From assembly GCA_049903315.1 (NCBI GenBank), contig JBNGBT010000003.1, positions 224,001-288,000 of the forward strand: 64,000 bases of DNA, given 5' to 3'. Both the position numbers and the translations under genes were made by a program. Shown here one piece after another: positions 42,671-61,034 of this stretch; positions within the stretch are counted from its first letter, which is position 1; each line of letters starts with the position of its first letter. Under the pieces are notes generated by a model. The model did no database searches and was not told the origin of the DNA. It was given only the letters and a program-made list of their open reading frames with translations. This stretch comes from Candidatus Cloacimonadota bacterium. Lineage in GTDB: Bacteria; Cloacimonadota; Cloacimonadia; JGIOTU-2.

Positions 42671-43075
42671 AATTTCCATGAAAATAACTGATGAAGCGAA
42701 AAAAATAAACTTTTTTGAGTGGTGGCGTCACAAAATTGGTATTTTGATGATATATATGTAGAAAGTATTATTGGAATAAATAGTATGAAGAAAAATGATA
42801 TAAGAATCTGTGCAAAAGCAAACAGAATAATTACTTTGAGCAAATGCATACGTGAATTTAAACAAAAAGATAGAGAATATATTGACATTTTTATTACAAA
42901 ATCTAAGGAAATAAATAAGTTTACTTAGATAAACCTCGCTATCCTCATCCTGGGATAGTGGGGTATTTGATGATAAAGATTGAATTGGTGAATAATGAGC
43001 AGAATCTGAAATTGAGGGACAAATTATAACGGAAGCTCTGATAAGAGAATGTGTTCACAGAAACTAAGGAGAAAA

Positions 43076-45358
43076 ATGAAAAAATTAATTCTTACAGCAG
43101 TGTTCATGCTGCTGATAATAACAATAAGTTATGCTGATATTATTATACCTGACGATTACGCAACTATTCAAGCCGGCATAAATGCTGCAACGGCAGGCGA
43201 TACTGTAAAAGTTAAATATGGAACTTACAATGAAGCAATTACGATAAACAAAGACCTTACTCTCATTAAATATTCTACACAAATGCCTACTATAACCTAT
43301 TCTTATGGTTCAATGATCACAATTCAAAGTGCAGAGGTATTGATATCTGGTTTTAATGTTGAGACAACAGCGCAATATGGATATGGAATGAGAGTATATG
43401 GAAACCAAGACGTTGTAATTGATGATTGTATAGTTTCAGGAATGTATAAGGGTATATTCTCTGAGCAGATACAGATTGAGATATACAATTGCCAATTTTA
43501 TGATAATCATAAAGCCATCACTATCACTACTAATATTGAAGAAAGTGAATATCCTGCTGTGATTAAGGGTTGTTCTATATATCAAAATGAAGCAGGAATA
43601 GATATTGATTCAAACGGTGGTCCACTCGTCCTGATCGAAGAATGTGATATTTATGAGAATGAATTAAATGGAATATTACTTGAAGGCGGTTGTTCAACAA
43701 TTAAGAGATGCATTATAAGCGACAACATTTATAATAATAATGGATATGGAATTGATTGTATATCAGGATATTGTGATATAATAAATTGTACGATACACGG
43801 AAACTACAAAGGTGTAAGATTTATTTCAAACATAGGAAAAGAGATAATAAACTCGATCCTTTGGGGTAATTCTTATGCAGATATAGTAGGATCGCCGACC
43901 GTAACCTATTCCTGTATTGAAGATGGATATGCCGGAAACGGAAACATAGATGATGATCCGCAGTTTGAAGATGCTGCTAATGGCGATTTCCATTTAAGAT
44001 GGGATAACGATGAGCTGAGTCCATGCATAGATACAGGAGACCAGAATACTGAATGGGATGGAGACGATACACCCCCCGACATGGGCAGACTAAGAGCGGA
44101 AAAACACTGGTATGACAATTGGGAATTGCCGGATATAAATACCAACCGTGGCTGGAAATGGATGTGCTTCCCTGTAATAGATACGGTTACAAACTCGCAA
44201 ACTTACGTAGGTGATATGGCTGAATATATGCTCGCTGATATCCTTGATACTGATTTACTTGACCATGTAGAATGGGTACCAATTGAAACAACAAGTAATA
44301 ATATTATTAATATTGAATTTGAAGATCCTATTTGGACAAATACTAATCATATTTTCACAAGCATACAGGGTTACAAATTCCAGATGCTTGATGATGATCC
44401 TGTTTATCTGCCGATATCCGGATTTCTTGAAGATTCGACCAAAACGATACAACTGAATGACGAACACGACAACTGGATGGGTTATTTCATAGATTATGAG
44501 CAGAATATAGAAGACGCTTTTGGAGAAGAAACCCTGGAAAATCTCTACTACATTCAGACACAACGATGGACAGTTACAAGAGAGGAACCAGAACCGGAAA
44601 GCCCATGGCTCGGTTTATCTTCTGCAAACAGAACACTCAATTACGGTGATCTGGTGATCGTGCGATGCTTTGATGACGAACTCTTTGCGTGGTGTGACAC
44701 TGAACTTGAACAAGAGAGAGATGTACGTGAAGACACTCAATATTTCAACTATGAAGAACAGGCGGATTATATTCCGATCTATGTGCAACTTGATCCAACA
44801 GATTTACCAACAGAGATTGCCGTATTTGTCGATGGTGAATGTAAAGGTGCCGAGAAGGTGCTTGAAGATCTGACCGATATTCGTGCTTATATGTTAGGTG
44901 CAAACGGTGGTAACATCACTTTTGAGATGTATTTTGACAATAAATCACCTATAGAAAAAGTGAGTAAATACTTTGTCTATAACACTAAAAGCATGGAATT
45001 TGAACCGGAGATCATCACCGTGAACCCCTCGAAAGATTACTACCTGGTAACCTTCAAAGAAACGGACACCCCTCAATTTACGTATGAATATAAAATGAAG
45101 CATTATCCTAATCCTGTTCGCTCTAACACAAAGATCAAATACTCGCTGCCGAGAACAGAAAAAGTTACCATAAATATATATAATGTACGTGGTCAGCTTA
45201 TACAAACACTCATAAATGATCAGGTCGGATCCGGCATACATACGGTATACTGGGATGGAACTGACTTAAGCGGTAAATACGTAAACAATGGCGTGTATAT
45301 GTATGTACTTAAAACTAATAATAAAACCATAGCACATAAAATGTTGCTTATGAGATAA
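43076..45358 (+). CDS. Secreted parallel beta-helix protein with FlgD-Ig/T9SS-like C-terminal domain
   Basis: Signal peptide, PDDYATIQAGI, 'C.I..N..G' beta-helix repeats, SPCIDTG, and terminal HYPNP...IYN.RGQ...WDG.D..G...Y...KMLLMR. Confidence 0.85.
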   Translation: MKKLILTAVFMLLIITISYADIIIPDDYATIQAGINAATAGDTVKVKYGTYNEAITINKDLTLIKYSTQMPTITYSYGSMITIQSAEVLISGFNVETTAQYGYGMRVYGNQDVVIDDCIVSGMYKGIFSEQIQIEIYNCQFYDNHKAITITTNIEESEYPAVIKGCSIYQNEAGIDIDSNGGPLVLIEECDIYENELNGILLEGGCSTIKRCIISDNIYNNNGYGIDCISGYCDIINCTIHGNYKGVRFISNIGKEIINSILWGNSYADIVGSPTVTYSCIEDGYAGNGNIDDDPQFEDAANGDFHLRWDNDELSPCIDTGDQNTEWDGDDTPPDMGRLRAEKHWYDNWELPDINTNRGWKWMCFPVIDTVTNSQTYVGDMAEYMLADILDTDLLDHVEWVPIETTSNNIINIEFEDPIWTNTNHIFTSIQGYKFQMLDDDPVYLPISGFLEDSTKTIQLNDEHDNWMGYFIDYEQNIEDAFGEETLENLYYIQTQRWTVTREEPEPESPWLGLSSANRTLNYGDLVIVRCFDDELFAWCDTELEQERDVREDTQYFNYEEQADYIPIYVQLDPTDLPTEIAVFVDGECKGAEKVLEDLTDIRAYMLGANGGNITFEMYFDNKSPIEKVSKYFVYNTKSMEFEPEIITVNPSKDYYLVTFKETDTPQFTYEYKMKHYPNPVRSNTKIKYSLPRTEKVTINIYNVRGQLIQTLINDQVGSGIHTVYWDGTDLSGKYVNNGVYMYVLKTNNKTIAHKMLLMR

Positions 45359-48807: not shown

Positions 48808-51800
48808 TTATTTCACGAGTATCATTTTCTTCACTTCGTCGAAGCCTTGATTTTCAAGCTTGTAGAAGTAGATACCTGTTGCCATATCAGAAATATCGAT
48901 TTGAGCAGCACCACTCACACCTTCCACAGTTTTGACAAATTCACCGTGAATGTTGTATATCTTAATGGTAGCGTTTTGATTCATTGCACTACCCTTAAGA
49001 TGATATTTGATCACAGTGGAGCTTTTTGCAGGATTCGGGAAGTTGCCGAGCAAGATAGTATTTTCATAATAGGTGTTATCGTCAACACCGATTTCGGGAA
49101 CGCCCGTACCAAATACGTCTAAATTATCAAATGAGAAAGGATTGATCTGGATGACAACAGTGCCATCATAATTTTGTGCATTCTGAGGAGCGAAGGTGAG
49201 ATCGTAGGTCATGCTTTCACCCATAGAGATCGAATATGTAAGAACATTTCTGCGTGGAGTTGTGCCAGTTTCTGCAACAGAGTAACAAGTAGGAGTGGTT
49301 ATTTGTCCGGACAATGTTCCGCTGCCAAGATTATAGATCGAGAATTGCATAGTGGAATCATGTCCTACCTGGACCTGACCAAAATCAAGAGACCCGGGTG
49401 ACAAGTAAAACACAGGGAATGGAGACAGAACAGGCGGAAGTGTTATATAATCTATCCATGCACAGTCTTGTCCGCCAACCTGAGTATAGTCTTTATCATA
49501 TACCCATTTGAATGTATGAGTGCCTGCTGTTACTGTGTATGACACTTCACTCCAACTCACTTCACCAGCCCATTCGCCTTTTTGGACACCATCAATATAG
49601 AATTGAAGGTAGTCGTAGTTATTTTCTGAGGATACTTTTCTGAAGAATGAAATATCACCGGCATTTGTATCTATCGTAAGAGAAAGTTCTGTTTCTGAGT
49701 TATTTCCGATAGCTCCGGATTTTGCGCAGAAGTTACCTTCATAGGCATTTATCTCATCGATAGTCCAATCTGCATCTCCACTTGTAATCCAGTTATATGC
49801 ATTGAAGTTGCCAGTCTCGAAGTCTTCGATTGAAAGTCCGACATATTCATAGAACATTTCAGTGGCACTGTAATTACCGCCAGTGACATTGAATTCGAGA
49901 GGTATGCTTACGCCGTTTGGCGCACTGCTGGAAACAGTAATATTGAAAACAGCAAATTTTGATTGATCAACATTAAAGCTGCCGAAATCATAAGTGCCAG
50001 TATTAATGGTGACATAGCTATTGCTTACGAGAGTTCCTGTTGCATCGGGAGAAGTTGCATGTCCGTCGTTGGTTGTTTCTATAGTAATACTTGCTGTTTC
50101 GCCAGCGTCGAGACGACCATTATTATTACCGCCCGAATCATTTATCGTGAGATTTCCTACTGTAAAATGAGGGGCATTAACAACTATTCCAAAAGCAGTA
50201 TCCCAGGTTTCTTTTGTTCCGGGATCACCCTCAACATTGACGTCGAGAACAACATAATGCTGGTCTTCAATATCGTTCGAAACACTGAATTCATATGCGT
50301 CAACCATCGTGGATGATTGATTAGATCCGATAGTGCCGAAGTTCTCTGTAATATCTGAGAAATCAATATGAGTATCTGTTGTTGAAAGTGTTGCTATTAC
50401 ATTATCAGCAGCTTGGACACCTACGTTTTTCAGTGTTAAGCCAAGCAGAATAGTTTCGCCGTAATCAATAACTCCATTATCATTTGCACCCGTATCATTA
50501 ATTGAATGACCTTCATAAATAATATATGGTCCGGAAGGTGGAATGACATTTACTATAGTTTCATAACGGTAGTAATTTTGCTTTACAACAGTGACAAGAA
50601 CATCTACTCCAGGGAGCTGAGATTCGAAAGAAATAGGTGTGGGAACTAAACCATTTCCAACACCAGTACCAATAATTTCACCATCAACTGAAAGGCAGAT
50701 GTCTGCTCCAGAATTCGCAGTCACATTAAAGGTCGTAATGCCACTTAAGATCGCGGCATCATGACTCACCTGAAGGTTTTGAGGAACTTCAGAATAGACC
50801 GTCATGAATGCATCACCATGATGATGGAAGAGGTAATATGTAATTGCTTTATTACTTGTGTTGTAAGGCCAGCTTGAGCCTTGAAGGAAAATTTTACCAG
50901 CTGAGTTACCCATGCAGGGATATATCCAGTCGGAATTAGAAGGAGGTGCACCATAGTCCGGCATAAACTGGGGCCACATCAAATCATACATGCCCCATAC
51001 ATAGGTATCGTTCACGAAGGAGTATGAGGTTTCTGACGCAGCTATAAGGCCAAGTGCGCGATGTTCATAACGATGCATTGCTTCTGCAAAACATTCTGAC
51101 GAATTATTATACTTTCCTGTTAAACAGTTGATAGAAAATACATACACAAGATCATCATTATACAATCCACCTAAATCTCCAGTATCATAATCCGGTTCAC
51201 CCCAGCCGGTAGTGCCGCCGTGGTCACGATGCTGAAGCATGAATGCGCCGCTGTTTATAGCGTTGTTAACCTGGGTGGCATTGCCGCCGGTCCAACCGCC
51301 AAGGGTTGAGGGATCTGTAGGGATATAACCTAATCCGGCAGGACCAAAATAAGCAAGAACAGTGGCAGTGTTCGTTGCTGTTGACCATACACCACCATTT
51401 GGATTACCGCTATAAATGGCATTTATTCTGACCTGGTTTTTTCCAAGTATATTTGACCAGAAACCGCCTACAGTTTCTGAGCAGATTTGGAACCAACGTT
51501 CAGTCTGCCAACCAAGAGCTGTAACAGGATGGTCATAGAAATCGGGATTTGTAGGAGGGTCTGTTTCATAATCAAGGAATTTTGAGACTGTGATTTCTAG
51601 TTCGCTATAATTTCTAGCTGTTATACGTGCAAAATGCATGTCGGGCATATCATCACCATTAACATCGGCATAGATATTGTCAGAAACACAACTGCCGTAA
51701 GAAGGTGAGATAATACCGGTACCTGTTGCTCCACCTGTGCCATAGTCAGCAAGCAACAGCACTGCTGAAGGCGCAGGAGTCCAAGTATTATAAGCCGTAT

Positions 51801-52665
51801 TGAAATAATTCTCTAAGGCTGAGGTTGTGTTGCCACCAATTTGAGTGAGGGTTACAACTTGTGTAATAATACCTTGTTTTTGACGGAAATTCTTTATTGA
51901 ATCCGCCCAGGTGATGAAGTCGGGATTATCAGGAACAACAATGAGGTATTCGCAGCCATCATCTTTTGCGGAGGTGTTTGAATAATCTTTTTCCGGAATT
52001 GATTCATAGTTTAGTATTGTCTGTGCGTAGATTGGATCCCACCATTTGCTGCGTAATCTGTCTTCACCATATTGACCATTGCCGCCGATAAAGTTCAAGT
52101 CAATTTGCATATCGCGGTATACAATCATCTCTTTTGTAACAGGATTGTATTGGAATGGGGTAATGCCAATGATCACGACATCGACTCCACGAATTTGTTT
52201 TACATCGGAGATCATAACAGGATTTGCCGGATAAAACTCATTTTTTGAATAAATCTGTATATCCTTGTTATAATCAAGAGGTCCTTCTTCAGTATCAAGA
52301 GGGATGCGGAAGGCAGGTGCAATATCCATATTCGGTACGATTTCGGAACGATAATCAACAATATTGAAAGAGACTGAAGCACCTTCCGGAATTGCAATAA
52401 ATCTGCTCATGCCCGGAAGGTCAGGGGCACCTTCATTATTTGGGAGAAAAACACCAGGGATGTGAATACTTTGAAGTGTCTCACCATCTACTTCTGCATC
52501 AGTAGTAAAATACTCCTGAACTGAGAAGTTGAGAGAAAGGTCAGAGGAATTTTGCCTTAGTATGCTGAATCCATGATCTCCCCAACTGTCAGTATATTGC
52601 TTTGCAAAAGCAACTGAGGAGAAGAGAATAAGGCAAAAAGCCATTAAAAAAACAATCTTTTTCAT
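48808..52665 (-). CDS. Gingipain-like C25 cysteine peptidase with propeptide, Ig-like/adhesin modules and C-terminal sorting domain
   Basis: Propeptide (G.PDLP...F..P; ITPFQYNP), catalytic HRDHG and SINCLTG, repeated DxG.N.NG.(L/I)D.GET modules, a cleaved-adhesin-like module, and NFPNP...TGIYFYKL...KKMILVK. Confidence 0.9.
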   Translation of the reverse strand: MKKIVFLMAFCLILFSSVAFAKQYTDSWGDHGFSILRQNSSDLSLNFSVQEYFTTDAEVDGETLQSIHIPGVFLPNNEGAPDLPGMSRFIAIPEGASVSFNIVDYRSEIVPNMDIAPAFRIPLDTEEGPLDYNKDIQIYSKNEFYPANPVMISDVKQIRGVDVVIIGITPFQYNPVTKEMIVYRDMQIDLNFIGGNGQYGEDRLRSKWWDPIYAQTILNYESIPEKDYSNTSAKDDGCEYLIVVPDNPDFITWADSIKNFRQKQGIITQVVTLTQIGGNTTSALENYFNTAYNTWTPAPSAVLLLADYGTGGATGTGIISPSYGSCVSDNIYADVNGDDMPDMHFARITARNYSELEITVSKFLDYETDPPTNPDFYDHPVTALGWQTERWFQICSETVGGFWSNILGKNQVRINAIYSGNPNGGVWSTATNTATVLAYFGPAGLGYIPTDPSTLGGWTGGNATQVNNAINSGAFMLQHRDHGGTTGWGEPDYDTGDLGGLYNDDLVYVFSINCLTGKYNNSSECFAEAMHRYEHRALGLIAASETSYSFVNDTYVWGMYDLMWPQFMPDYGAPPSNSDWIYPCMGNSAGKIFLQGSSWPYNTSNKAITYYLFHHHGDAFMTVYSEVPQNLQVSHDAAILSGITTFNVTANSGADICLSVDGEIIGTGVGNGLVPTPISFESQLPGVDVLVTVVKQNYYRYETIVNVIPPSGPYIIYEGHSINDTGANDNGVIDYGETILLGLTLKNVGVQAADNVIATLSTTDTHIDFSDITENFGTIGSNQSSTMVDAYEFSVSNDIEDQHYVVLDVNVEGDPGTKETWDTAFGIVVNAPHFTVGNLTINDSGGNNNGRLDAGETASITIETTNDGHATSPDATGTLVSNSYVTINTGTYDFGSFNVDQSKFAVFNITVSSSAPNGVSIPLEFNVTGGNYSATEMFYEYVGLSIEDFETGNFNAYNWITSGDADWTIDEINAYEGNFCAKSGAIGNNSETELSLTIDTNAGDISFFRKVSSENNYDYLQFYIDGVQKGEWAGEVSWSEVSYTVTAGTHTFKWVYDKDYTQVGGQDCAWIDYITLPPVLSPFPVFYLSPGSLDFGQVQVGHDSTMQFSIYNLGSGTLSGQITTPTCYSVAETGTTPRRNVLTYSISMGESMTYDLTFAPQNAQNYDGTVVIQINPFSFDNLDVFGTGVPEIGVDDNTYYENTILLGNFPNPAKSSTVIKYHLKGSAMNQNATIKIYNIHGEFVKTVEGVSGAAQIDISDMATGIYFYKLENQGFDEVKKMILVK

Positions 52666-52814
52666 CAATATCCTCCATTGATTTTGATTAGATTTTTCAT
52701 TTTATTTTTTTATTCAAAAATTTTTGATTAAAAAACCAACTAAACGAAACTATGTCAAGTTTATATAAGAGATAATAATATTTTAAAGAAAATAAAGAGC
52801 GTGTAAACATAAAT

Positions 52815-53936
52815 TTACCAGGGGCTAGTAATGTCATAGAGGGCTGCGTGAAGAATATTGTTTTCTGAAAATATGAAATAAATATAATATTTTCCAGCTT
52901 CAAAGGGAAGATGCTTTACTTTGCCTGTTCCTTCTTGAGGAAGAAAATAATATCCGGATTCACGAGCTCCTTTCGGCAGCCAGAAAAGACCATAATTGCC
53001 AGTAGGGATTGCTTTGAAATTTGACATTTCATAGGGCCCGAAGTCGTCAATGATTGCAACTGACTTGAATTCCCAAGACTCTCCGATCTTCATAACATTA
53101 AGATATTTCTCAGTACCGTTCAGCATTGATATTTTGGGATTGAAACCTGCATCATCCTCAAGAATGTAATAGCTCATTGTACCATTTTGTTGGGCAAGTA
53201 TCGCATGTATTTTCCCACCCTCAACAGGGCAGTGGTAAGGTATGTTTTCTTTATTTTTCCAGCGCACCCATTCTTTTTCTGAAGATGGTTTATAATAAAG
53301 AAAATTTTCTTCAAGATCGGTTGTATTAAGAAGCTGGGAAGTCTCATGCGGCGGCAGATTGGTCATAGTGAAAACAGGTTTTGAAGGTTCTCCAAGACGC
53401 ACATCAAAAGGTTCATCATAAAGATTTACAAAGAATATTTTTGCATCCTTAATCCAAAGAGTTATTGGAGACAGGAAATAATCGTCAGAGTAATAGTGAA
53501 CGGAAAAATAATCTCTGAGATCCTCAGTGGATGAAATTGTGCTATCGTCGATGTTAACCTCACGGGTTGTTAAGGTGTTTTTGGTGAGATCAATATTAAA
53601 ACAATAATAGTTTACCTCATCACCGCTTGATCCGAGAGGTCGCGCATAGAGATATTTATTCACTCCAATATTCGTAATATAACCGATATAATAGGGGTCG
53701 CCAAGGTAGTCATCATTGTACGTGATGATCTTAATAAAATATGAATAAGGGTCATTTTCAATAAACTCAATTTTTTGCACATCATAGTCATCACTGGTTT
53801 CCCAGATACCAAGTAGATTTCTATCAATCGGAATGGTGCCAAGCTCCCCAAGAGGATATTTCGTAGCTGCGGGACAGCCAATGAGCGTCATTGCTATAGT
53901 CAGAATAATTACAAAATTTAGTAATCTTTTTAGCAT
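52815..53936 (-). CDS. Hypothetical lipoprotein
   Basis: Lipobox LIGC; appears to have an N-terminal domain plus two related beta-rich C-terminal modules. Confidence 0.65.
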   Translation of the reverse strand: MLKRLLNFVIILTIAMTLIGCPAATKYPLGELGTIPIDRNLLGIWETSDDYDVQKIEFIENDPYSYFIKIITYNDDYLGDPYYIGYITNIGVNKYLYARPLGSSGDEVNYYCFNIDLTKNTLTTREVNIDDSTISSTEDLRDYFSVHYYSDDYFLSPITLWIKDAKIFFVNLYDEPFDVRLGEPSKPVFTMTNLPPHETSQLLNTTDLEENFLYYKPSSEKEWVRWKNKENIPYHCPVEGGKIHAILAQQNGTMSYYILEDDAGFNPKISMLNGTEKYLNVMKIGESWEFKSVAIIDDFGPYEMSNFKAIPTGNYGLFWLPKGARESGYYFLPQEGTGKVKHLPFEAGKYYIYFIFSENNILHAALYDITSPW

Positions 53937-54083: not shown

Positions 54084-55097
54084 TTACTTGAGAAGTGATT
54101 TCTTTAAAAAATATATCTGCCAGAGGTCTTTGTCAGAAAAATGGAGTAATGGTTTGAGGGCCGCCAAGCCTATTCGACCAATGGTTTTTTCGAGATACTT
54201 CATTTCAGAAAATTTCTCTTGAATTGCGGGATCTATTTCAACAGGATATCCCATTTCTCTCAGCATTAACAATGCTTTTGCTCTCACGGCTAATTCAAGG
54301 TGAAGTCTCATAAAGCAGAGCATATCGCCTACAATTTCTTTGGGGAGAACTTCATGAAGTGAGTATAAATATTTGCCTGCATTGCTCTCTTTAAATCTTC
54401 CGCCCTGAAGTGACTTCATGAGCGATATATCACTCGTCAAACCTGTATCAAGCCACTTTTCCAACCTTCTTTCACTTTGCTGAAATATGACAAATATTAC
54501 GATTGAGAAAACGATTATAAGGAGTACAGTCATCATTATCGGAGGGAGTATAAAAAGATTAAAACTGAGATGAAAGAAAATTGCAATAAGTATTCCCGGA
54601 AGAAAAAACTTTATGCGTGTGCAGTTATTCTTTTCAATAATATAGCCCGATATGATTGCCATCAGACAAGTTGTGGAGCCATGCATGACTGCGGTTCCAA
54701 AACCCCGAAGTATCCATGTGAAAATGGTCTCATGTTTGAGAATGGACAGATAGTAACTATTTTCGATAAAAGAAAAGCCTGCTCCTACCGCAAAACCGAT
54801 GATCGCTGCATCGACAAGAAATCCGATTCTTTTTTTATAGAAAAGTATTATGACGATAGCAGCTTTGAACAATTCCTCGATAGGGGGTGCGATATATATT
54901 GAAAGTGTCGTCACATGTATGTGAAATGTGATTTCAATGAGATATTCAATACAAAAACTAGCTGCGGCAGCAATGCACCCAAACAAGATGACTTTCAATA
55001 ATAGAGAGAGTTTCAGTAATTTATAGCTATCAAAAATAACAAGGAAAAGAAGGAATATGAAAACTGGGCACAGGCTTACAAGAATACTGGGGATCAT
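54084..55097 (-). CDS. PrsW family glutamic-type intramembrane protease with C-terminal soluble extension
   Basis: All four PrsW motifs: PIEELFK (EExxK), GFSFIEN (FxxxE), VMHG and FHLSFN (HxxxN). About 130 aa of hydrophilic tail. Confidence 0.88.
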   Translation of the reverse strand: MIPSILVSLCPVFIFLLFLVIFDSYKLLKLSLLLKVILFGCIAAAASFCIEYLIEITFHIHVTTLSIYIAPPIEELFKAAIVIILFYKKRIGFLVDAAIIGFAVGAGFSFIENSYYLSILKHETIFTWILRGFGTAVMHGSTTCLMAIISGYIIEKNNCTRIKFFLPGILIAIFFHLSFNLFILPPIMMTVLLIIVFSIVIFVIFQQSERRLEKWLDTGLTSDISLMKSLQGGRFKESNAGKYLYSLHEVLPKEIVGDMLCFMRLHLELAVRAKALLMLREMGYPVEIDPAIQEKFSEMKYLEKTIGRIGLAALKPLLHFSDKDLWQIYFLKKSLLK

Positions 55098-55098
55098 T

Positions 55099-58044
55099 CT
55101 AAAATAGTTTGAGACTCACCATGAATTCGTGGGTATAATTTTGGTTATTATCAACTGCAGCAGCATAACCAAACGAGAGATACGTTCTCAGAAGAGAAAG
55201 TGCGATGAATTGGAAATCAACTTGCACGCCAATATTAAAATACATTTTCCGCAAAGAGCTATTTTCAACATTCGTAGCAAGTGCAGAGGAGAAAAATGAT
55301 GTCCTCATCCATCTTAAATAAAAGGGTATGATACCTGCTTCACGAAACCGAAGTGGGGGTAGTTCAAATTCGAGCATTGCCTTAAGAAAATTTGTTCCCG
55401 AAATGCTGCTTATTTCTTTGCCGGGAAAACTGTTCCATTCCCTAAACCTTTGTACATCCTTTTCGTCAATCCAGTTATTCTGGAAGCCGCCAATATAAAA
55501 ATTATCAAAAGAATCATTTCTTTTACCGGGTGATATCCCTCCGGCAGTTCTCAGCCAAATTGATGAGTGGTTTATAAAAAGTGGAATTCCGTAATCTGCC
55601 TGTGAATGAAGAAGGATGTGCATTCTATCCTTTGCATAACTCAGGTTTATGTGAGTTCCGAGGATATAACCTTTTTCATCATCTACCGAACCCTGTGAGC
55701 TTTGTAAGTTTTTATAGATTATATCTGTGTTGCACTCGAGAATTGTCTTTGCATCGATCGTGACTTCCTGTGAGAATGGAAGTTCATCCAATCCCGTATA
55801 AGCGGTTATATCTGATGATAAGGTCAGAATTCTCGGCTTGTCATAGATAAGATCTTCTTTGTAGGTAAGCCCGACAGAAAAGCCTTTTCGACTCACTTTA
55901 GTGGGTCCAAAAAGATCATAAAAATCTGTCTTATTATATGCAAGATGTAAGCCCCATTTTCTTAATTGAAAATCACCCATCAAATGATAGGATTCGTTAT
56001 CCTGAAGATGATTGTTTGGTAGCGAATATGAAAAGGTAAGGTCAAGAATTCGCGAGTTTACATCATCAGAAAAATGAAAATAGTAACCATAAGCGGTATA
56101 ATCTTTATACCCTTCTACCACCGGATATGCAAAAAGGAGATCAATATTTTTAAATTTATCATATTTGCCCTTAAAGATGGCGAGTGAGTCGATATCATAC
56201 TCGTAGAAATCACCATAATTCCACTCTCGCAAAATTGGATATTTATCAGCGATTGCCTGTCCAAGATATTCTATTGCACTAACTCCCGAAACAGGTTCAT
56301 TTTTTAGCCAAAAAGGGGAGAATCCCTGTCCTCCTTCAAATTCGAATGCAATCAGTGAATCCTTGCTGACAGGAACAGGTCTGAACAAACCCATCTCAAC
56401 ATTACTTAGGGCGCTCATGTCGTCAAGTTCAAAATCGTAACGGAAAATATTTGACACTCCTGTATAATATGATGCTCCAAAGAGATATCGACCATCATGA
56501 GAAAACACAAAATTTGCAGGAGAACTGAAGCCAAAATCAAAGATCGATTTATAAGACGCATTATTGTTCATAAGACTATCAATTTCAAATAATGCTAATT
56601 CCTGAGTGCCATCAGCATGAGTGAGTGCAGCAGATAATTTCTTGCCGTCAGGTGAAATGTCGAGATCGTATATCGATGTGCTGTAATGAAATGCATGGAC
56701 TGCTTTCCATTCTTTATAAGGAGGTTCCAGCCGAATCAGGGTGGAAATTCCATCAGAATGTCTGACACCCCACAGTGAGGAATCGGCAGGATTTGATACA
56801 AGATCGCCGGCACGAAGATTGTTATATAGTTTAGTGATCTTTCCTGTCTCAATATCAACAACATTCAGATCTCTAAGAGTATAATTATCTGTCGTGAAGT
56901 AAATCTTTTTTTGAGATTTATCAAGCGCCATTGAACAGGTGAAATAGGTCGATGCTCCTCTGAGATTGCAAATCTTATGAAAATCTCCACTCTTCACATC
57001 AATGTAACCAAGCTGAGGAAGCTGACCGGGAAATTTAATTGCGGTGTAGAATCTTCCTGTTTCCTCATCATAATAACTTTTAGAGACAGATCCAAGAATT
57101 TTATCAGTGATTTCTTTGCATTCAGTAACGGGATTTTCTGCTATCTTTAAAAGGTTTTTCTGTTGCCAGTGATATTCAAATGTTATCCAATCTGACCAAG
57201 AATGGCTCAGAGATTTTCCATATACTTTTTTAAATTGCGAAGTAAAGCATAGATCACTATTATCAACTCTGTTTACCCAGGTGATAAGTTTTTCAGGTCC
57301 ATACATGTATGCTAAATAAGCAAAAAATCTTGCTCCGTATAAATAAGAGTTAGCCCCGACCTGAAAATCGATCGCTGTGCCTTCAGACTCTAAACCTACT
57401 GCATGATACATTGGGATGGAATCCTTGACCATCGCCCTAAAAATCATTTCATCATATGAACTCATCGCGCGCCCTACACCCCTGCACATCCATGTTTCCA
57501 TGAATACGGCAATTCCCTCATGAAACCAGCGGGGTGCAAATTTCCGTGGCACGGTAAGGTAGGAGTAAAGGAGCGAGAGGGGATTTGTAGCATCTTGTTG
57601 TACTTTTCCAAGGAAAACTTTCCTGAAAAATCGCTCTGATTCTCCTGAATTATCCATTGCAACGACATGTGTGAGTTCGTGATTCATCAGGAAGGACATG
57701 CGTTCATTCGAAGGAGCAACTTCGAACACATACATACTTGGAGCGATGTTCACAAACACAAAATTGACTGGCGCAGCAGTAGCACCTCCATTACTCCAGT
57801 CAGAAAAATCCTCTAAGAAGATTGTAATAGGTTCTTGAGATTTATAATCCCAGAAATCCTTGTAAAAATGATATGTATTGAGAAATGAACGGGCTAAGTG
57901 AGGTACGATATACGAATGCGCATTCGAATAATAAATGAGATTAAGATCTTCTGTTTTCAGCTGTTTAAATTGCTGGGAATGTACCGGTGAAATGAGATTC
58001 AAAAAGAGGAAACAAAAGATAGCTGCTTTGAAGATGAGTTTCAA
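55099..58044 (-). CDS. Outer-membrane protein: zinc-metallopeptidase domain + TolB-like beta-propeller + Omp85-like beta-barrel
   Basis: Signal peptide; NHELTH (HExxH) and WFHEGIA (third-ligand Glu); ISPDGKK and FSHDGRY propeller blades; amphipathic strands, FYIGG and terminal ...VSLKLF. Confidence 0.75.
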   Translation of the reverse strand: MKLIFKAAIFCFLFLNLISPVHSQQFKQLKTEDLNLIYYSNAHSYIVPHLARSFLNTYHFYKDFWDYKSQEPITIFLEDFSDWSNGGATAAPVNFVFVNIAPSMYVFEVAPSNERMSFLMNHELTHVVAMDNSGESERFFRKVFLGKVQQDATNPLSLLYSYLTVPRKFAPRWFHEGIAVFMETWMCRGVGRAMSSYDEMIFRAMVKDSIPMYHAVGLESEGTAIDFQVGANSYLYGARFFAYLAYMYGPEKLITWVNRVDNSDLCFTSQFKKVYGKSLSHSWSDWITFEYHWQQKNLLKIAENPVTECKEITDKILGSVSKSYYDEETGRFYTAIKFPGQLPQLGYIDVKSGDFHKICNLRGASTYFTCSMALDKSQKKIYFTTDNYTLRDLNVVDIETGKITKLYNNLRAGDLVSNPADSSLWGVRHSDGISTLIRLEPPYKEWKAVHAFHYSTSIYDLDISPDGKKLSAALTHADGTQELALFEIDSLMNNNASYKSIFDFGFSSPANFVFSHDGRYLFGASYYTGVSNIFRYDFELDDMSALSNVEMGLFRPVPVSKDSLIAFEFEGGQGFSPFWLKNEPVSGVSAIEYLGQAIADKYPILREWNYGDFYEYDIDSLAIFKGKYDKFKNIDLLFAYPVVEGYKDYTAYGYYFHFSDDVNSRILDLTFSYSLPNNHLQDNESYHLMGDFQLRKWGLHLAYNKTDFYDLFGPTKVSRKGFSVGLTYKEDLIYDKPRILTLSSDITAYTGLDELPFSQEVTIDAKTILECNTDIIYKNLQSSQGSVDDEKGYILGTHINLSYAKDRMHILLHSQADYGIPLFINHSSIWLRTAGGISPGKRNDSFDNFYIGGFQNNWIDEKDVQRFREWNSFPGKEISSISGTNFLKAMLEFELPPLRFREAGIIPFYLRWMRTSFFSSALATNVENSSLRKMYFNIGVQVDFQFIALSLLRTYLSFGYAAAVDNNQNYTHEFMVSLKLF

Positions 58045-58055
58045 TTTATTTATTA

Positions 58056-58865
58056 TTATTGTGGACGAATAATATTTTGGAAATCACTTGCATGAATAAT
58101 GCTTATAAAATCTTCGCTGAACAGAACTGCTCCAAAATTTTCATCAGAATATATAGCTTTTATTGCTTCAATATTATCGTCATTTAGCAGATATACAACT
58201 TTCAACTGTTCTTCGGGAATAATAGCTGTGAGTTCAGGATGAGCAAAATCGATATCCTTTATTGATTCTTGGAATTCTTGGCTCTTATATGTTTTTTCAA
58301 AATTCGGACTGAATCCGAAATCGGGAGAACTGATCGCTGCAATAATTACAATATTAAAGAAATCATTTTGATTGAATTCCTGAGATAAAACTGCATTTAA
58401 TTTATCTTCAGGTATTGCCAAAACCGCATTTTGGAAATCTTGGCTGAAGCCCTTCTTAAATTCATCACTCTGGATAAAATTCTCGAACTCCTTCGGGGTA
58501 TTCAAGACAGGCACAATATTCTGAAAATCTTGCGATAACTGAACATAACGCTGGAAATCGGACATAAGTGGTATAATGATATCCTGAAAATCAGAACTCA
58601 GAACAGCTTTCCTGAAATTCTCATCTTTGATAAGATTCTGGAATTCAGCACCCTGTATTATGTCATTAATTTCCGGATTTTCAATAATGATTTCATCAAC
58701 AGTAAACTGCTTGCCAATATCTCGCTTACTTTTTTCGATACCTGCCATTGTTCCAGTGAGTTTCTGTGAAGATGGGGGAGGATAAAAAAATGAGAAATAA
58801 ACCACAAGAATTACAATAACAACAGCAAGCACGACAAACAAACCTGTACGATTTTTTTGTTTCAT
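58056..58865 (-). CDS. Membrane-anchored helical-repeat protein of unknown function
   Basis: Short basic N-terminus, TM helix, YPPP...GT, then about 17 copies of (S)x[D/E/N]F[Q]. GGAGG RBS and TTGACA at 58933-58938. Confidence 0.8.
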   Translation of the reverse strand: MKQKNRTGLFVVLAVVIVILVVYFSFFYPPPSSQKLTGTMAGIEKSKRDIGKQFTVDEIIIENPEINDIIQGAEFQNLIKDENFRKAVLSSDFQDIIIPLMSDFQRYVQLSQDFQNIVPVLNTPKEFENFIQSDEFKKGFSQDFQNAVLAIPEDKLNAVLSQEFNQNDFFNIVIIAAISSPDFGFSPNFEKTYKSQEFQESIKDIDFAHPELTAIIPEEQLKVVYLLNDDNIEAIKAIYSDENFGAVLFSEDFISIIHASDFQNIIRPQ

Positions 58866-58972
58866 GCTACCTCCATGATATTTTTATTGCCATTATTTCT
58901 TATAATTTTTCATTCTGGATTTTAGCATTATTTGTCAATAATATTAATCAAAAATACTATTCAGGAGACTAA

Positions 58973-59656
58973 ATGAGATTTAAATACATTCTTTTTGATG
59001 CAGACGGGACCTTGTTTGATTATGAACATGCTGAACTGCAAGCTTTTAAGAATACATTAAGGAAATTTCATATCAAAGGTAATGTTGAAGAACTTCATAT
59101 GTCATATAAAACGATAAATTATGCAATATGGAAAGATTTTGAGGAGCATAAAATAAGTGCAAAAGAACTCCGCGTGGAGCGCTTTAAAAGATTTTTGGCG
59201 AAAGAGCAATTACACCATGACAGCAAAGAAATGAGCCGAACCTACATAGAGAATCTTTCAAAAGGGATAAAACTTCTGGATGGAGCAAAAGAAATTATTA
59301 ACTATCTGCACAATAATTATTCAGTGAGTCTTATTACAAATGGACTGGCAGATGTGCAGTATTCACGCATAAGGAATTCTGAGCTGAAAGATGGTTTTGA
59401 GCATATTTTTATTTCGGAAGAGATTGGATTTCCCAAACCTATGAAAGAAATTTTCGAGTACGTTTTTGGAGAGCTTGGTTATCCTCAGAAGGAAGAAGTA
59501 CTTATCGTGGGTGATAGTTTCCGGTCAGATATTGTCGGAGGAAAGAATTACGGCATTAAAACCTGCTGGTTCAATCCGAAGAAATTCAAAAATGAGAACG
59601 GATTTGACCCGGATTATGAGATACAAAAATTAAAGGAATTGAAAGCTATTTTATAA
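58973..59656 (+). CDS. YjjG-family HAD nucleotidase
   Basis: LFDADGTLFD, ITNG, ISEEIG.PKP...IF and VGDS..SDI.GG motifs. Confidence 0.88.
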   Translation: MRFKYILFDADGTLFDYEHAELQAFKNTLRKFHIKGNVEELHMSYKTINYAIWKDFEEHKISAKELRVERFKRFLAKEQLHHDSKEMSRTYIENLSKGIKLLDGAKEIINYLHNNYSVSLITNGLADVQYSRIRNSELKDGFEHIFISEEIGFPKPMKEIFEYVFGELGYPQKEEVLIVGDSFRSDIVGGKNYGIKTCWFNPKKFKNENGFDPDYEIQKLKELKAIL

Positions 59657-61034
59657 GAGTGACTTTCTGTGTTTCGATAACTTCACCATCTACTTTCAAT
59701 ACGGCAAAATACATGCCGGAACACACAACTTCGTTTCGTGTGTCCGTTGCATCCCAACTGAATGATTTCTTACCGTTTTCTAATACTTGGTTACATAGGG
59801 ATGTGACTTTCTGTCCTTTTACATTATAGATCGAGAGCTCTGCTTGATGATTTGATTTTAGATCAAAGGAAAATCTTATTGAATGAGAAAACGGATTAGG
59901 ACTATATAGCAAAATATTAGATGCCGATATTTCTGGTTCTTCAACATAGAGAGGATCTGTATTTCCATCGCAGTCAGTTTTTGTGAGTCTAAGACAATCA
60001 TCAGATGGCTGGAGAAAAATGAATCCACCATCAGAAGTAAGACCAATATTTTTATCCTGACCACTAATAGTGTAATCCTTTTGCCAAATTAGACTAAAAT
60101 CTTCATCTAATTTAATAAGATATGGATTCGCTCCGATAAAGTTGCCGTCTTCTAAAGGAACGATTGCTTTCACACCATCATCAAAAACGCCTAATTCTTG
60201 TTGAAGGGTATTTCCTTGTGGATCCAGTAACCACAAAAGCCCTTTTTCATTGGCAATCGAAGTATAGTTTTCTCCAGAGACAATGATATTATGATCGACA
60301 GTTTCTTCAACTACCATACCTCGGTCATCAAAACCAAATCCGTCGAGTATATGGTACCATTCAGTGGAGCCAAGATAATCGGTCTTAAGAATGAAGGCAT
60401 CCCTATAACCATAATTGCTGACCCAACCTGTCATAACATAGCCCCCATCAGAATAGCTTTTGATCGAGAGAATATTCCCTTCAAAAAAGTTATCAAGCAT
60501 GAACACCCTAGACCATTGTTGGTTTCCATCATTATCCCATTTGCTAATTGCGAGATTGTACCAGGCGGTTCGACCTCCCATTATAATGTTGCCGTCAAGG
60601 GTTTCATCCATGGTATAGATACGGTTCCCGGCATTACTATTATACCATTGGACATTACCCTGTTGATCTCGTTTGATTAGAAATGTAATGTCGGAGAATC
60701 TATACCAACCCGAATGTAAAGTGCCAGCGCTAGCACTAATAGTCAAAGCATTCGCTCCTGTATCCCAATCTTCAATTTCACTCGAGATAATATTTCCATA
60801 AAGGTCGCAATGAATATAATATGCAAAACAGTTATAGTAATCCTCGTAATATCCGTTGATGACATAGCGATCGTGCAGTACAAGTAGATTTCTTTCGTAA
60901 TAATTGTGATTGGTTGGGATTGATGGTGTAAATGGGTCAAGGTCCTTAATCCACGTGCTTTGTGCAAACACAGTTGAGCAAAACATTATACCGTAAAGTA
61001 GCAGTATTAAAGCTAATTTAATTCTTTTGAACAT
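59646..61034 (-). CDS. Secreted beta-propeller-like repeat protein with FlgD-Ig/T9SS-like C-terminal domain
   Basis: Signal peptide; repeats of 'K.D..GN..W' and 'DGGY...G'; SPNPF...IYNVKGQ...WDA...SGMYF...QKVTLIK. Confidence 0.82.
   Translation of the reverse strand: MFKRIKLALILLLYGIMFCSTVFAQSTWIKDLDPFTPSIPTNHNYYERNLLVLHDRYVINGYYEDYYNCFAYYIHCDLYGNIISSEIEDWDTGANALTISASAGTLHSGWYRFSDITFLIKRDQQGNVQWYNSNAGNRIYTMDETLDGNIIMGGRTAWYNLAISKWDNDGNQQWSRVFMLDNFFEGNILSIKSYSDGGYVMTGWVSNYGYRDAFILKTDYLGSTEWYHILDGFGFDDRGMVVEETVDHNIIVSGENYTSIANEKGLLWLLDPQGNTLQQELGVFDDGVKAIVPLEDGNFIGANPYLIKLDEDFSLIWQKDYTISGQDKNIGLTSDGGFIFLQPSDDCLRLTKTDCDGNTDPLYVEEPEISASNILLYSPNPFSHSIRFSFDLKSNHQAELSIYNVKGQKVTSLCNQVLENGKKSFSWDATDTRNEVVCSGMYFAVLKVDGEVIETQKVTLIK

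Follow-up and report, generated by a model that had tools for sequence, protein, structure and literature searches.

What would a PrsW protease cut at a locus that encodes no sigma factor to be released? The question is raised by a 64,000-nucleotide stretch of contig JBNGBT010000003.1 from a Candidatus Cloacimonadota bacterium (assembly GCA_049903315.1, positions 224,001 to 288,000 of the forward strand; referred to hereafter as the window), in which gene 1 (a membrane-anchored repeat protein), gene 2 (a predicted zincin–propeller–barrel protein) and the PrsW gene follow one another in that order. All three lie on the minus strand, separated by 11 nt (gene 1/gene 2) and 1 nt (gene 2/PrsW), just as a preliminary description made from the letters alone had it (coordinates are collected in Table 1). 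The window locus has no cognate extracytoplasmic function (ECF) sigma factor or anti-sigma factor, and the window's genome gives no match to our anti-sigma profile. From comparison with related loci we tentatively propose that the three genes form a pathway dedicated to cutting and exporting one helical product that stays intact, with PrsW serving as leader peptidase and gene 2 acting both as the receiver of the product and as its pore.

Across related loci the trio makes up the conserved core of a module that is so far unstudied and occurs mostly in uncultured lineages. Our set joined 46 genome loci to the best 80 of 699 metagenome loci, from which one duplicate, the window's own locus and a paralog were removed to give 125 loci; because these are mutually related and over-sample Bacteroidales, all counts of co-occurrence are descriptive. 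Gene 1 lies upstream of gene 2 in 77 of the 79 loci whose flank measures 2.5 kb or more (one miss, L117, has a gene-1 match that the filter skipped; the genome of the other, L010, carries two copies elsewhere), and PrsW is present in 45 of the 46 loci for which 5 kb or more of upstream and 1.2 kb or more of downstream sequence is available. The adjacency that had been proposed is thus real, and far tighter than that of any other neighbor. Among 151 sampled genomes of the window's phylum, gene 2 is found in 12 and gene 1 in the same 12 plus one; the C-terminal tail of this PrsW is found in 11 of those 12 plus that same extra genome, and so tracks gene 2. All that the extra genome has is the broken start of a gene 1 and the end of a PrsW gene, on either side of a glycosyltransferase cluster, a single event of little weight. 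At L182 (G054:C76:3000-20000), in a genome of the same genus, a glycosyltransferase cluster has replaced the module, of which a gene-1 start with a frameshift and the final 47 codons of PrsW are left. Named lineages with the module include Bacteroidales, Ignavibacteriales, Bryobacterales, KSB1, Neomarinimicrobiota and Delongbacteria.

Gene 2 itself has no Pfam or NCBIfam match and no significant match in sequence searches of solved structures; among 15 relatives, matches below cut-off were seen to Omp85_2 (six of 15) and Peptidase_MA_2 (one of 15). An AlphaFold2 model built on an alignment of 126 sequences (predicted local distance difference test score, pLDDT, 92.9; predicted template modeling score, pTM, 0.90) comprises a helical zincin, a propeller starting at about residue 304 and 16 strands, with a long loop (loop 6) between strands 11 and 12. 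Structural searches with this model matched TolB (1c5k; Z 23.4, root-mean-square deviation 2.9, 244 residues aligned) and Deinococcus BamA (8xnb; Z 19.5, root-mean-square deviation 4.1, 288 aligned), in agreement with the TolB-like blades and the Omp85-type barrel proposed from the letters; the structures listed include no zincin, in lists filled by propellers that leave room for such a match. The predicted zinc site, an HExxH motif with a downstream glutamate ligand as in gluzincins (peptidase MA), is intact as had been claimed, with His122, Glu123, His126 and Glu176 invariant across the 126 sequences. The barrel, long loop included, is well conserved, and many near-invariant columns fall at residues 828–918. 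The phenylalanine on which the window's barrel ends, cited in the preliminary description, is not a family feature (the consensus ends ...SLKIL). The closest relatives of gene 2 are from Cloacimonadota genomes (78–92% identity), and there are at least 3,166 relatives in all. The window's genome also encodes a canonical paralog that is above the Pfam cut-offs for Peptidase_MA_2, PD40 and Omp85 and keeps the loop-6 and strand-13 motifs LRGY and FADVG; gene 2 matches it at merely an expectation value (E) of 4e-5 over 51 residues and, judged against it, appears to be a separate, divergent branch. The canonical paralog (G000:C2:22466-25426, minus strand, locus L048) has no adjoining PrsW and sits 3' of MlaD-like and ABC ATPase genes (named by eye).

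PrsW proteins have four catalytic motifs, and all four had been read in the third gene. This assignment stands: the protein scores 81 bits against PF13367 (cut-off 23.5, E 1e-22), and Glu74/Glu75/Lys78, Phe108xxxGlu112-Asn, His139 and His176 each recur in 95% or more of the 82 sequences compared. It falls outside the Bacillus PrsW equivalog NF033739 (score 41, cut-off 225), and in all 82 sequences the protease fold is followed by a conserved C-terminal tail of ~130 residues for which a sequence search of solved structures gave no relative. The PrsW of these 82 loci is a stand-alone protein of 325–416 aa, and none is fused N-terminally to a toxin domain (the length filter was 290–420 aa, and longer fusions are not listed).

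The product of gene 1 is placed in no Pfam or NCBIfam family above cut-off, and its N-terminus has no significant match in sequence searches of solved structures; as to short-helix repeats of the STI1/DP type in its tail, Atlas searches yielded weak STI1/ubiquilin leads and unnamed clusters, 2llw reached E 0.24, and PF17830 matches five of 20 relatives with no single stretch significant. A profile of its N-terminal region matches 1,927 clusters at 50% identity. Aligned family members have in common a helix and, some ten residues beyond it, a G[TSA][ILMV]G motif, followed by a conserved stretch of ~40 residues and then a variable tail. The window's protein conforms to this plan and to the earlier account of it, with ~7 cytoplasmic residues ahead of the helix, YPPP at residues 28–31, Gly38-Thr39, and a repetitive body in which [SA]x[DE]F[QK] occurs six times (0.07 in shuffles; six copies reached in 0 of 10,000). 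The YPP...GT segment stressed in the preliminary description is present in the window's gene 1, but across the family it is G[TSA][ILMV]G, not YPP, that is conserved.

The tails of gene-1 relatives offer a view of what such a body may be. Of 114 tails tested, 48 were clearly periodic and 33 of these have a period of nine residues; in a wider search the same period was found in 78 of 135. Twenty-five regular tails give the unit [NSD]-x-x-F-x-x-[AL]-[LM]-x, with Phe at position 4 in 17 (the phase of the unit was selected by script to favor the [NSD]-x-x-F pattern). Period and pattern are kept while the sequences diverge, as is expected of a structure rather than a ligand. Bacteroidales tails carry irregular DxEKLG units behind a helical domain, and these genomes often have two to four tandem gene-1 paralogs. 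No convincing enzyme domain was found on any of 20 relatives scanned. One 804-aa relative (L096:4447-6861) has a 12-residue period and lies above the Pfam LED-repeat cut-off (PF20854), a match that is possibly compositional. The idea that the N-terminal region is a general sorting signal on varied cargo, PEP-CTERM-like, is unsupported, with 31 genomes holding one gene-1 gene or a few paralogs.

The link between gene 1 and PrsW comes from relatives that do have an anti-sigma factor. The ectodomain of these cluster anti-sigmas is unrelated to gene 1, and both carry a G-[TSA]-hydrophobic motif at equal distance from the helix: by pattern it is present in 39 of 39 anti-sigmas (a set chosen with a profile that includes the motif) and in 109 of 113 members of the gene-1 family, against 35 of 499 proteins taken as controls from the window's genome. 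Anti-sigmas picked independently, by position, gave 17 G-type and four A-type motifs among 21 (read from a printout), and the motif is in all 21 aligned Bacteroidales anti-sigmas. The same post-membrane motif on gene 1 and on cluster anti-sigmas points to gene 1 as a PrsW substrate; the known substrate of PrsW is the ectodomain of an anti-sigma factor (PMC8767453). The segment that follows the motif in gene 1 (family pattern K..YR..Q...DV.L....Q) was not seen in the separate anti-sigmas when the alignments were compared, and may be an element for docking to gene 2 or for self-assembly.

A further 16 loci encode the anti-sigma domain and gene 1 as one in-frame fusion (of the rows flagged as fusions, another three turned out not to be). 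In 14 of these 16, GGAGG or AGGAG and an ATG or GTG stand just ahead of the helix, compared with five of 547 control windows, so that the sigma-free short form appears to be kept even where the fusion exists. Among the best 150 database matches to gene 1, 77 have an N-terminal extension, which matches the anti-sigma N-domain in 58 of the 77 (0 of the 73 unextended proteins). Fused forms occur at six places on a gene-2 tree (72 sequences, deep nodes poorly supported, rooted on a distant paralog). A single gene thus seems to yield two products, the longer an anti-sigma and the shorter the cargo.

How is gene 1 expressed in such loci? A motif found by eye in upstream sequences, CAACTT-N15-[GAC]TA[AT]T, which we take to be an ECF-type promoter, stands before gene 1 in 23 of the 44 unfused loci that bear an ECF gene, where 1.9 would be expected, and before the sigma gene in 32 of 58, as against two of 61 for gene 2 and 0 of 49 for PrsW; it is found in two of 16 ECF-less loci, one of which has a sigma gene downstream, and in just one of 17 rows classed as fused. 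A stable hairpin follows the gene-1 stop in 32 of 93 loci compared with six of 93 controls, which is soft evidence since the controls are coding and not intergenic; the window locus has no gap of that sort after gene 1. Promoter, hairpin and tandem paralogs together suggest bulk production of gene 1.

The claim that no ECF sigma factor is nearby is correct for the window locus and fails for the family: of the 46 loci with sufficient flank, 34 have an ECF sigma and 31 a STAS or HATPase gene. The module is therefore not free of regulation, and the premise that no ECF or phosphatase partner could explain PrsW is not supported. Five informative loci of the window's phylum lack both ECF and anti-sigma yet retain the three genes, and they group with the window as one clade on the gene-2 tree (support 0.97). 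Most other branches of the tree carry the sigma factor, which makes its loss the simpler reading: the window's lineage would have lost the sigma pair and kept the three genes. At the window, the family's ECF-type motif was not found in a motif scan; here, and in four other ECF-less loci of the phylum, TTGACA or TTGACT stands in its place. The preliminary description had placed the three genes behind a single TTGACA and a GGAGG ribosome-binding site. GGAGG is in place; TTGACA exists (58933-58938, minus strand) but lacks a properly spaced -10 box, and a consensus scan selects instead a TG-extended TTAATA-17-TAAAAT at 58947-58919, in a region where promoter-like sites are at chance level (27 against 24.5 +/- 4.6 expected). 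No RNA holder was listed for this region, a result with no bearing on expression.

Partner-switch genes behave differently from the sigma pair in some of these loci. STAS and HATPase stay with the three genes in L008, L108, L109, L110, L117, L122 and L142, in which no ECF was seen; the switch may therefore act on the core, with the PrsW tail as a candidate target. An NMT1-type binding protein, a Cache/SpoIIE-like protein, a second sensor, HATPase and STAS form a block 110 kb from the window locus on the same contig (G000:C33:162169-168398, minus strand), which resembles the switch flanking the module elsewhere; such a block directly precedes gene 1 in L142.

On what was observed directly (co-occurrence, domain model, intact catalytic motifs, shared motif, nested starts and promoter motif), we infer a sequence of events that specifies which enzyme cuts what and where, translocation through the barrel, fiber assembly and the fate of the product. 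PrsW would cut the gene 1 product at G-T-M-A-G just outside the inner membrane, and the zincin–propeller–barrel protein would receive the freed helical-repeat ectodomain, trim it and pass it to the cell surface, where it may form a rod or fiber. In relatives with the sigma pair the same cut, made on the anti-sigma, would release the sigma factor (the anti-sigma either bears the same motif or is the in-frame long form of gene 1), and the freed sigma would drive more gene 1 in a loop coupled to processing; the sigma pair would then be an add-on that reads the same cut. The window's lineage would run the three genes alone behind a housekeeping-type promoter. A shared motif, a cargo form without cytoplasmic domain and a clade that has dropped the sigma factor are together best fitted by PrsW as leader peptidase and gene 2 as pore, a reading that we hold at somewhat under an even chance.

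Several observations weigh against it. BamA carries (V/I)RG(F/Y) in loop 6 and FxDxG in strand 13; these motifs are absent from the gene-2 family consensus, so translocation through the barrel is not guaranteed. The repeats of the window's own gene 1 are degenerate (autocorrelation 0.13), the irregular DxEKLG spacing in Bacteroidales suits chopping more than a regular rod, and a search for a conserved C-terminal export signal on gene 1 found none. The ECF and partner-switch genes of most relatives fit pure signaling, the loci counted are not independent samples, and contact of gene 1 with PrsW or gene 2 is a step that we infer. B. subtilis PrsW, moreover, cuts RsiW just 40 residues from its C-terminus (PMC8767453), and a cut near the helix is thus not the known PrsW geometry.

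The main competitor, which we regard as unlikely on balance, would have the module signal only: gene 1 would be an envelope-spanning sensor stalk touching the outer-membrane zincin, nothing would be exported, and stress would cause the zincin and PrsW to cut gene 1 and so release an ECF sigma or throw the STAS/HATPase/SpoIIE switch. The frequency of sigma and switch genes, the 16 fusions of anti-sigma to gene 1 and the presence of the ECF-type promoter upstream of the sigma gene as well all agree with this, as do two ECF-less loci of the phylum with SpoIIE and HATPase directly upstream and the fact that anti-sigma cleavage is the sole PrsW role tested according to PMC8767453. Set against these are a short form with ~7 residues in the cytoplasm that has a ribosome site to itself even where it is part of a fusion, a whole clade that retains the three genes intact without sigma or anti-sigma, a window genome with no anti-sigma profile match, and the tandem paralogs, dedicated promoter and downstream hairpin that suggest bulk production. 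Less likely again is that gene 1 is a multi-copy peptide precursor, in which PrsW would free the ectodomain, the zincin would chop the repeats and short peptides would leave through the barrel to be detected, in the manner of a pheromone loop, by neighboring binding proteins and Cache-SpoIIE sensors. Such a scheme would account for the irregularly spaced DxEKLG units, the invariant zincin site, a promoter layout that is self-inducing, and the presence of ABC_sub_bind (13), NMT1 (five) and Cache-SpoIIE (eight, a count that mixes SpoIIE and kinase genes) among the 46 genome loci; it is at odds with most of the regular tails, which keep period and amphipathic pattern rather than sequence, with the absence of binding-protein and sensor genes from the window locus, and with a core that includes no modifying enzyme or dedicated receptor. 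A ribosomally synthesized and post-translationally modified peptide made with modifying enzymes was considered separately and rejected, there being no radical SAM enzyme or similar among 25 locus proteins scanned.

Improbable, in our estimation, is that gene 2 is a clean-up protease, its barrel merely anchoring a zincin that destroys the ectodomain released by PrsW. A barrel lacking both the BamA motifs and a POTRA domain would suit that role, and periplasmic quality control has been suggested for another enzyme-fused Omp85 group (Heinz & Lithgow, PMC4104836). The conservation of the barrel and its long loop, with the near-invariant columns noted above, speaks against a simple anchor, which would also leave unexplained why a repeat cargo that can reach 850 residues is served by a promoter of its own.

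If PrsW is the leader peptidase of an export route, how does that route compare with known systems? In flagellar control the anti-sigma FlgM couples gene expression to export. The arrangement proposed here would be alike in that an anti-sigma is removed by the machine whose cargo the sigma turns on, and different in that a protease would remove it, at a motif that the cargo carries too, the anti-sigma often being an in-frame long form of the cargo gene. In two-partner secretion, TpsB has POTRA domains on its barrel and TpsA is a β-helical cargo with a TPS domain. There, as here, an Omp85-superfamily barrel gene (TpsB is also named in PMC4104836) lies beside one repeat-rich cargo with a conserved N-terminal segment, but gene 2 has zincin and propeller instead of POTRA domains, the cargo is anchored in the membrane and its repeats are short and helical, and the set includes two dedicated proteases; no TPS-type Pfam match was found on gene 1 or 20 relatives. 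Nearest to gene 2 is the "WD40-like" Omp85 subfamily, with a TolB-like propeller N-terminal to an Omp85-type barrel and no POTRA domain (Heinz & Lithgow, 2014, PMC4104836). The modeled propeller and 16-strand barrel of gene 2 would place it there, although it is barely similar to the canonical member in the same genome and has no Pfam match; in the main text of that paper the word "peptidase" has 0 occurrences, no peptidase domain, partner substrate or PrsW was noted, and a function is just suggested.

The sigma-W/RsiW/PrsW system of Bacillus subtilis (PMC8767453) resembles the present one in its intact PrsW-family motifs and in the ECF and one-helix anti-sigma of most relatives. It differs in that the sigma pair is dispensable here and absent in the window, that the constant partners are a repeat protein that is no anti-sigma and an outer-membrane barrel, and that this PrsW has its 130-aa tail and a score far below the Bacillus equivalog cut-off. 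PrsW-linked export or release of polymorphic toxins has been proposed from comparative genomics (Zhang et al, 2012, PMC3482391), likewise with PrsW as the processing and release enzyme of a secreted cargo; in the proteins described there, which are mainly from Gram-positive bacteria, PrsW and a toxin domain are joined in cis, whereas here PrsW has a gene of its own, the cargo lacks a toxin domain and an outer-membrane barrel belongs to the set.

No description of the cluster was found in the literature (titles and starts of abstracts, with few subscription papers covered), nor any paper combining PrsW, ECF and Omp85, or anti-sigma factor with internal translation, in-frame and isoform. A reclassification of ECF sigma factors has no PrsW, STAS, SpoIIE or Omp85 in its main text, and among the entries of its supplement that were covered PrsW is tied only to C. 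difficile sigmas, although an ECF group with such a context could stand elsewhere there (PMC7826278). A bolder form of the export reading, to which we give slightly less credence than to the pathway itself, is that the module represents a new class of secretion system in double-membrane bacteria, with PrsW as leader peptidase, gene 2 as maturase and pore, a fiber cargo of nine-residue helical repeats, and a second in-frame start that makes an anti-sigma and so switches the system on upon cutting. Were this so, PrsW would gain a second job on a separate cargo, the uncharacterized propeller-Omp85 proteins would have their first substrate, and a secretion route that switches itself on would be added to those described, in a large family. 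The shared motif makes testable a long-open question, which sequence the PrsW protease recognizes, and nesting the reading frames of anti-sigma and cargo would be an uncommon means of tying expression to processing. Having three genes and no sigma factor, the window copy is the smallest version for rebuilding in the laboratory.

Table 1. Features of the three-gene locus, in window coordinates.
Feature	Position	Strand	Basis and remarks
Gene 1	58056..58865	minus	Open reading frame, 269 aa; membrane-anchored repeat protein, likely PrsW substrate and export cargo
Gene 2	55099..58044	minus	Open reading frame, 981 aa, TTG start; signal peptide, zincin, beta-propeller, Omp85-type barrel
PrsW	54084..55097	minus	Open reading frame, 337 aa; PrsW-family intramembrane metalloprotease
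Single hydrophobic helix of gene 1 (residues ~8-27)	58785..58844	minus	Sequence and family alignment
G-T-M-A-G motif of gene 1 (residues 38-42)	58740..58754	minus	Putative PrsW recognition or cut site
Conserved segment that follows the motif in gene 1	58626..58739	minus	Family alignments
Degenerate helical repeat body of gene 1 (SxDFQ units)	58080..58652	minus	Motif count, periodicity of relatives
Zincin domain of gene 2 (residues 25-301)	57142..57972	minus	HExxH (H122-E123-x-x-H126) at 57667-57681, E176 at 57517-57519
TolB-like beta-propeller of gene 2 (residues 304-587)	56284..57135	minus	Structural match to TolB
16-strand barrel of gene 2 (residues 635-979), without POTRA domain	55108..56142	minus	Strand count and BamA match
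Conserved C-terminal tail of PrsW, ~130 aa	54087..54485	minus	Alignments; a feature of this subfamily of PrsW alone
GGAGG ribosome-binding site of gene 1	58870..58874	minus	Sequence; 4 nt ahead of ATG
Housekeeping-type promoter candidate (TTGACA and extended -10 site)	58919..58947	minus	Consensus scan

The locus shows no sign of being a recent horizontal island (guanine plus cytosine content 37.5%, compared with 38.5% for the genome). In the Bacteroidales loci (L013-L044) the 3' flank of gene 2 often holds an additional gene or genes, for a protein of three ABC_sub_bind domains, a STAS fusion of ~407 aa, an ABC permease and ATPase, or a 283-aa lipoprotein together with a 1,010-aa ABC-2 exporter. 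In the window, a 373-aa predicted lipoprotein with no Pfam match lies 3' of PrsW (52815-53936, minus strand) and is conserved in that place solely in close relatives (L005, L182). Further out are a gingipain-like C25 peptidase and two other proteins (48808-52668, minus; 43049-45358, plus; 59646-61034, minus), all three of which bear Por_Secre_tail or FlgD-like C-terminal domains.

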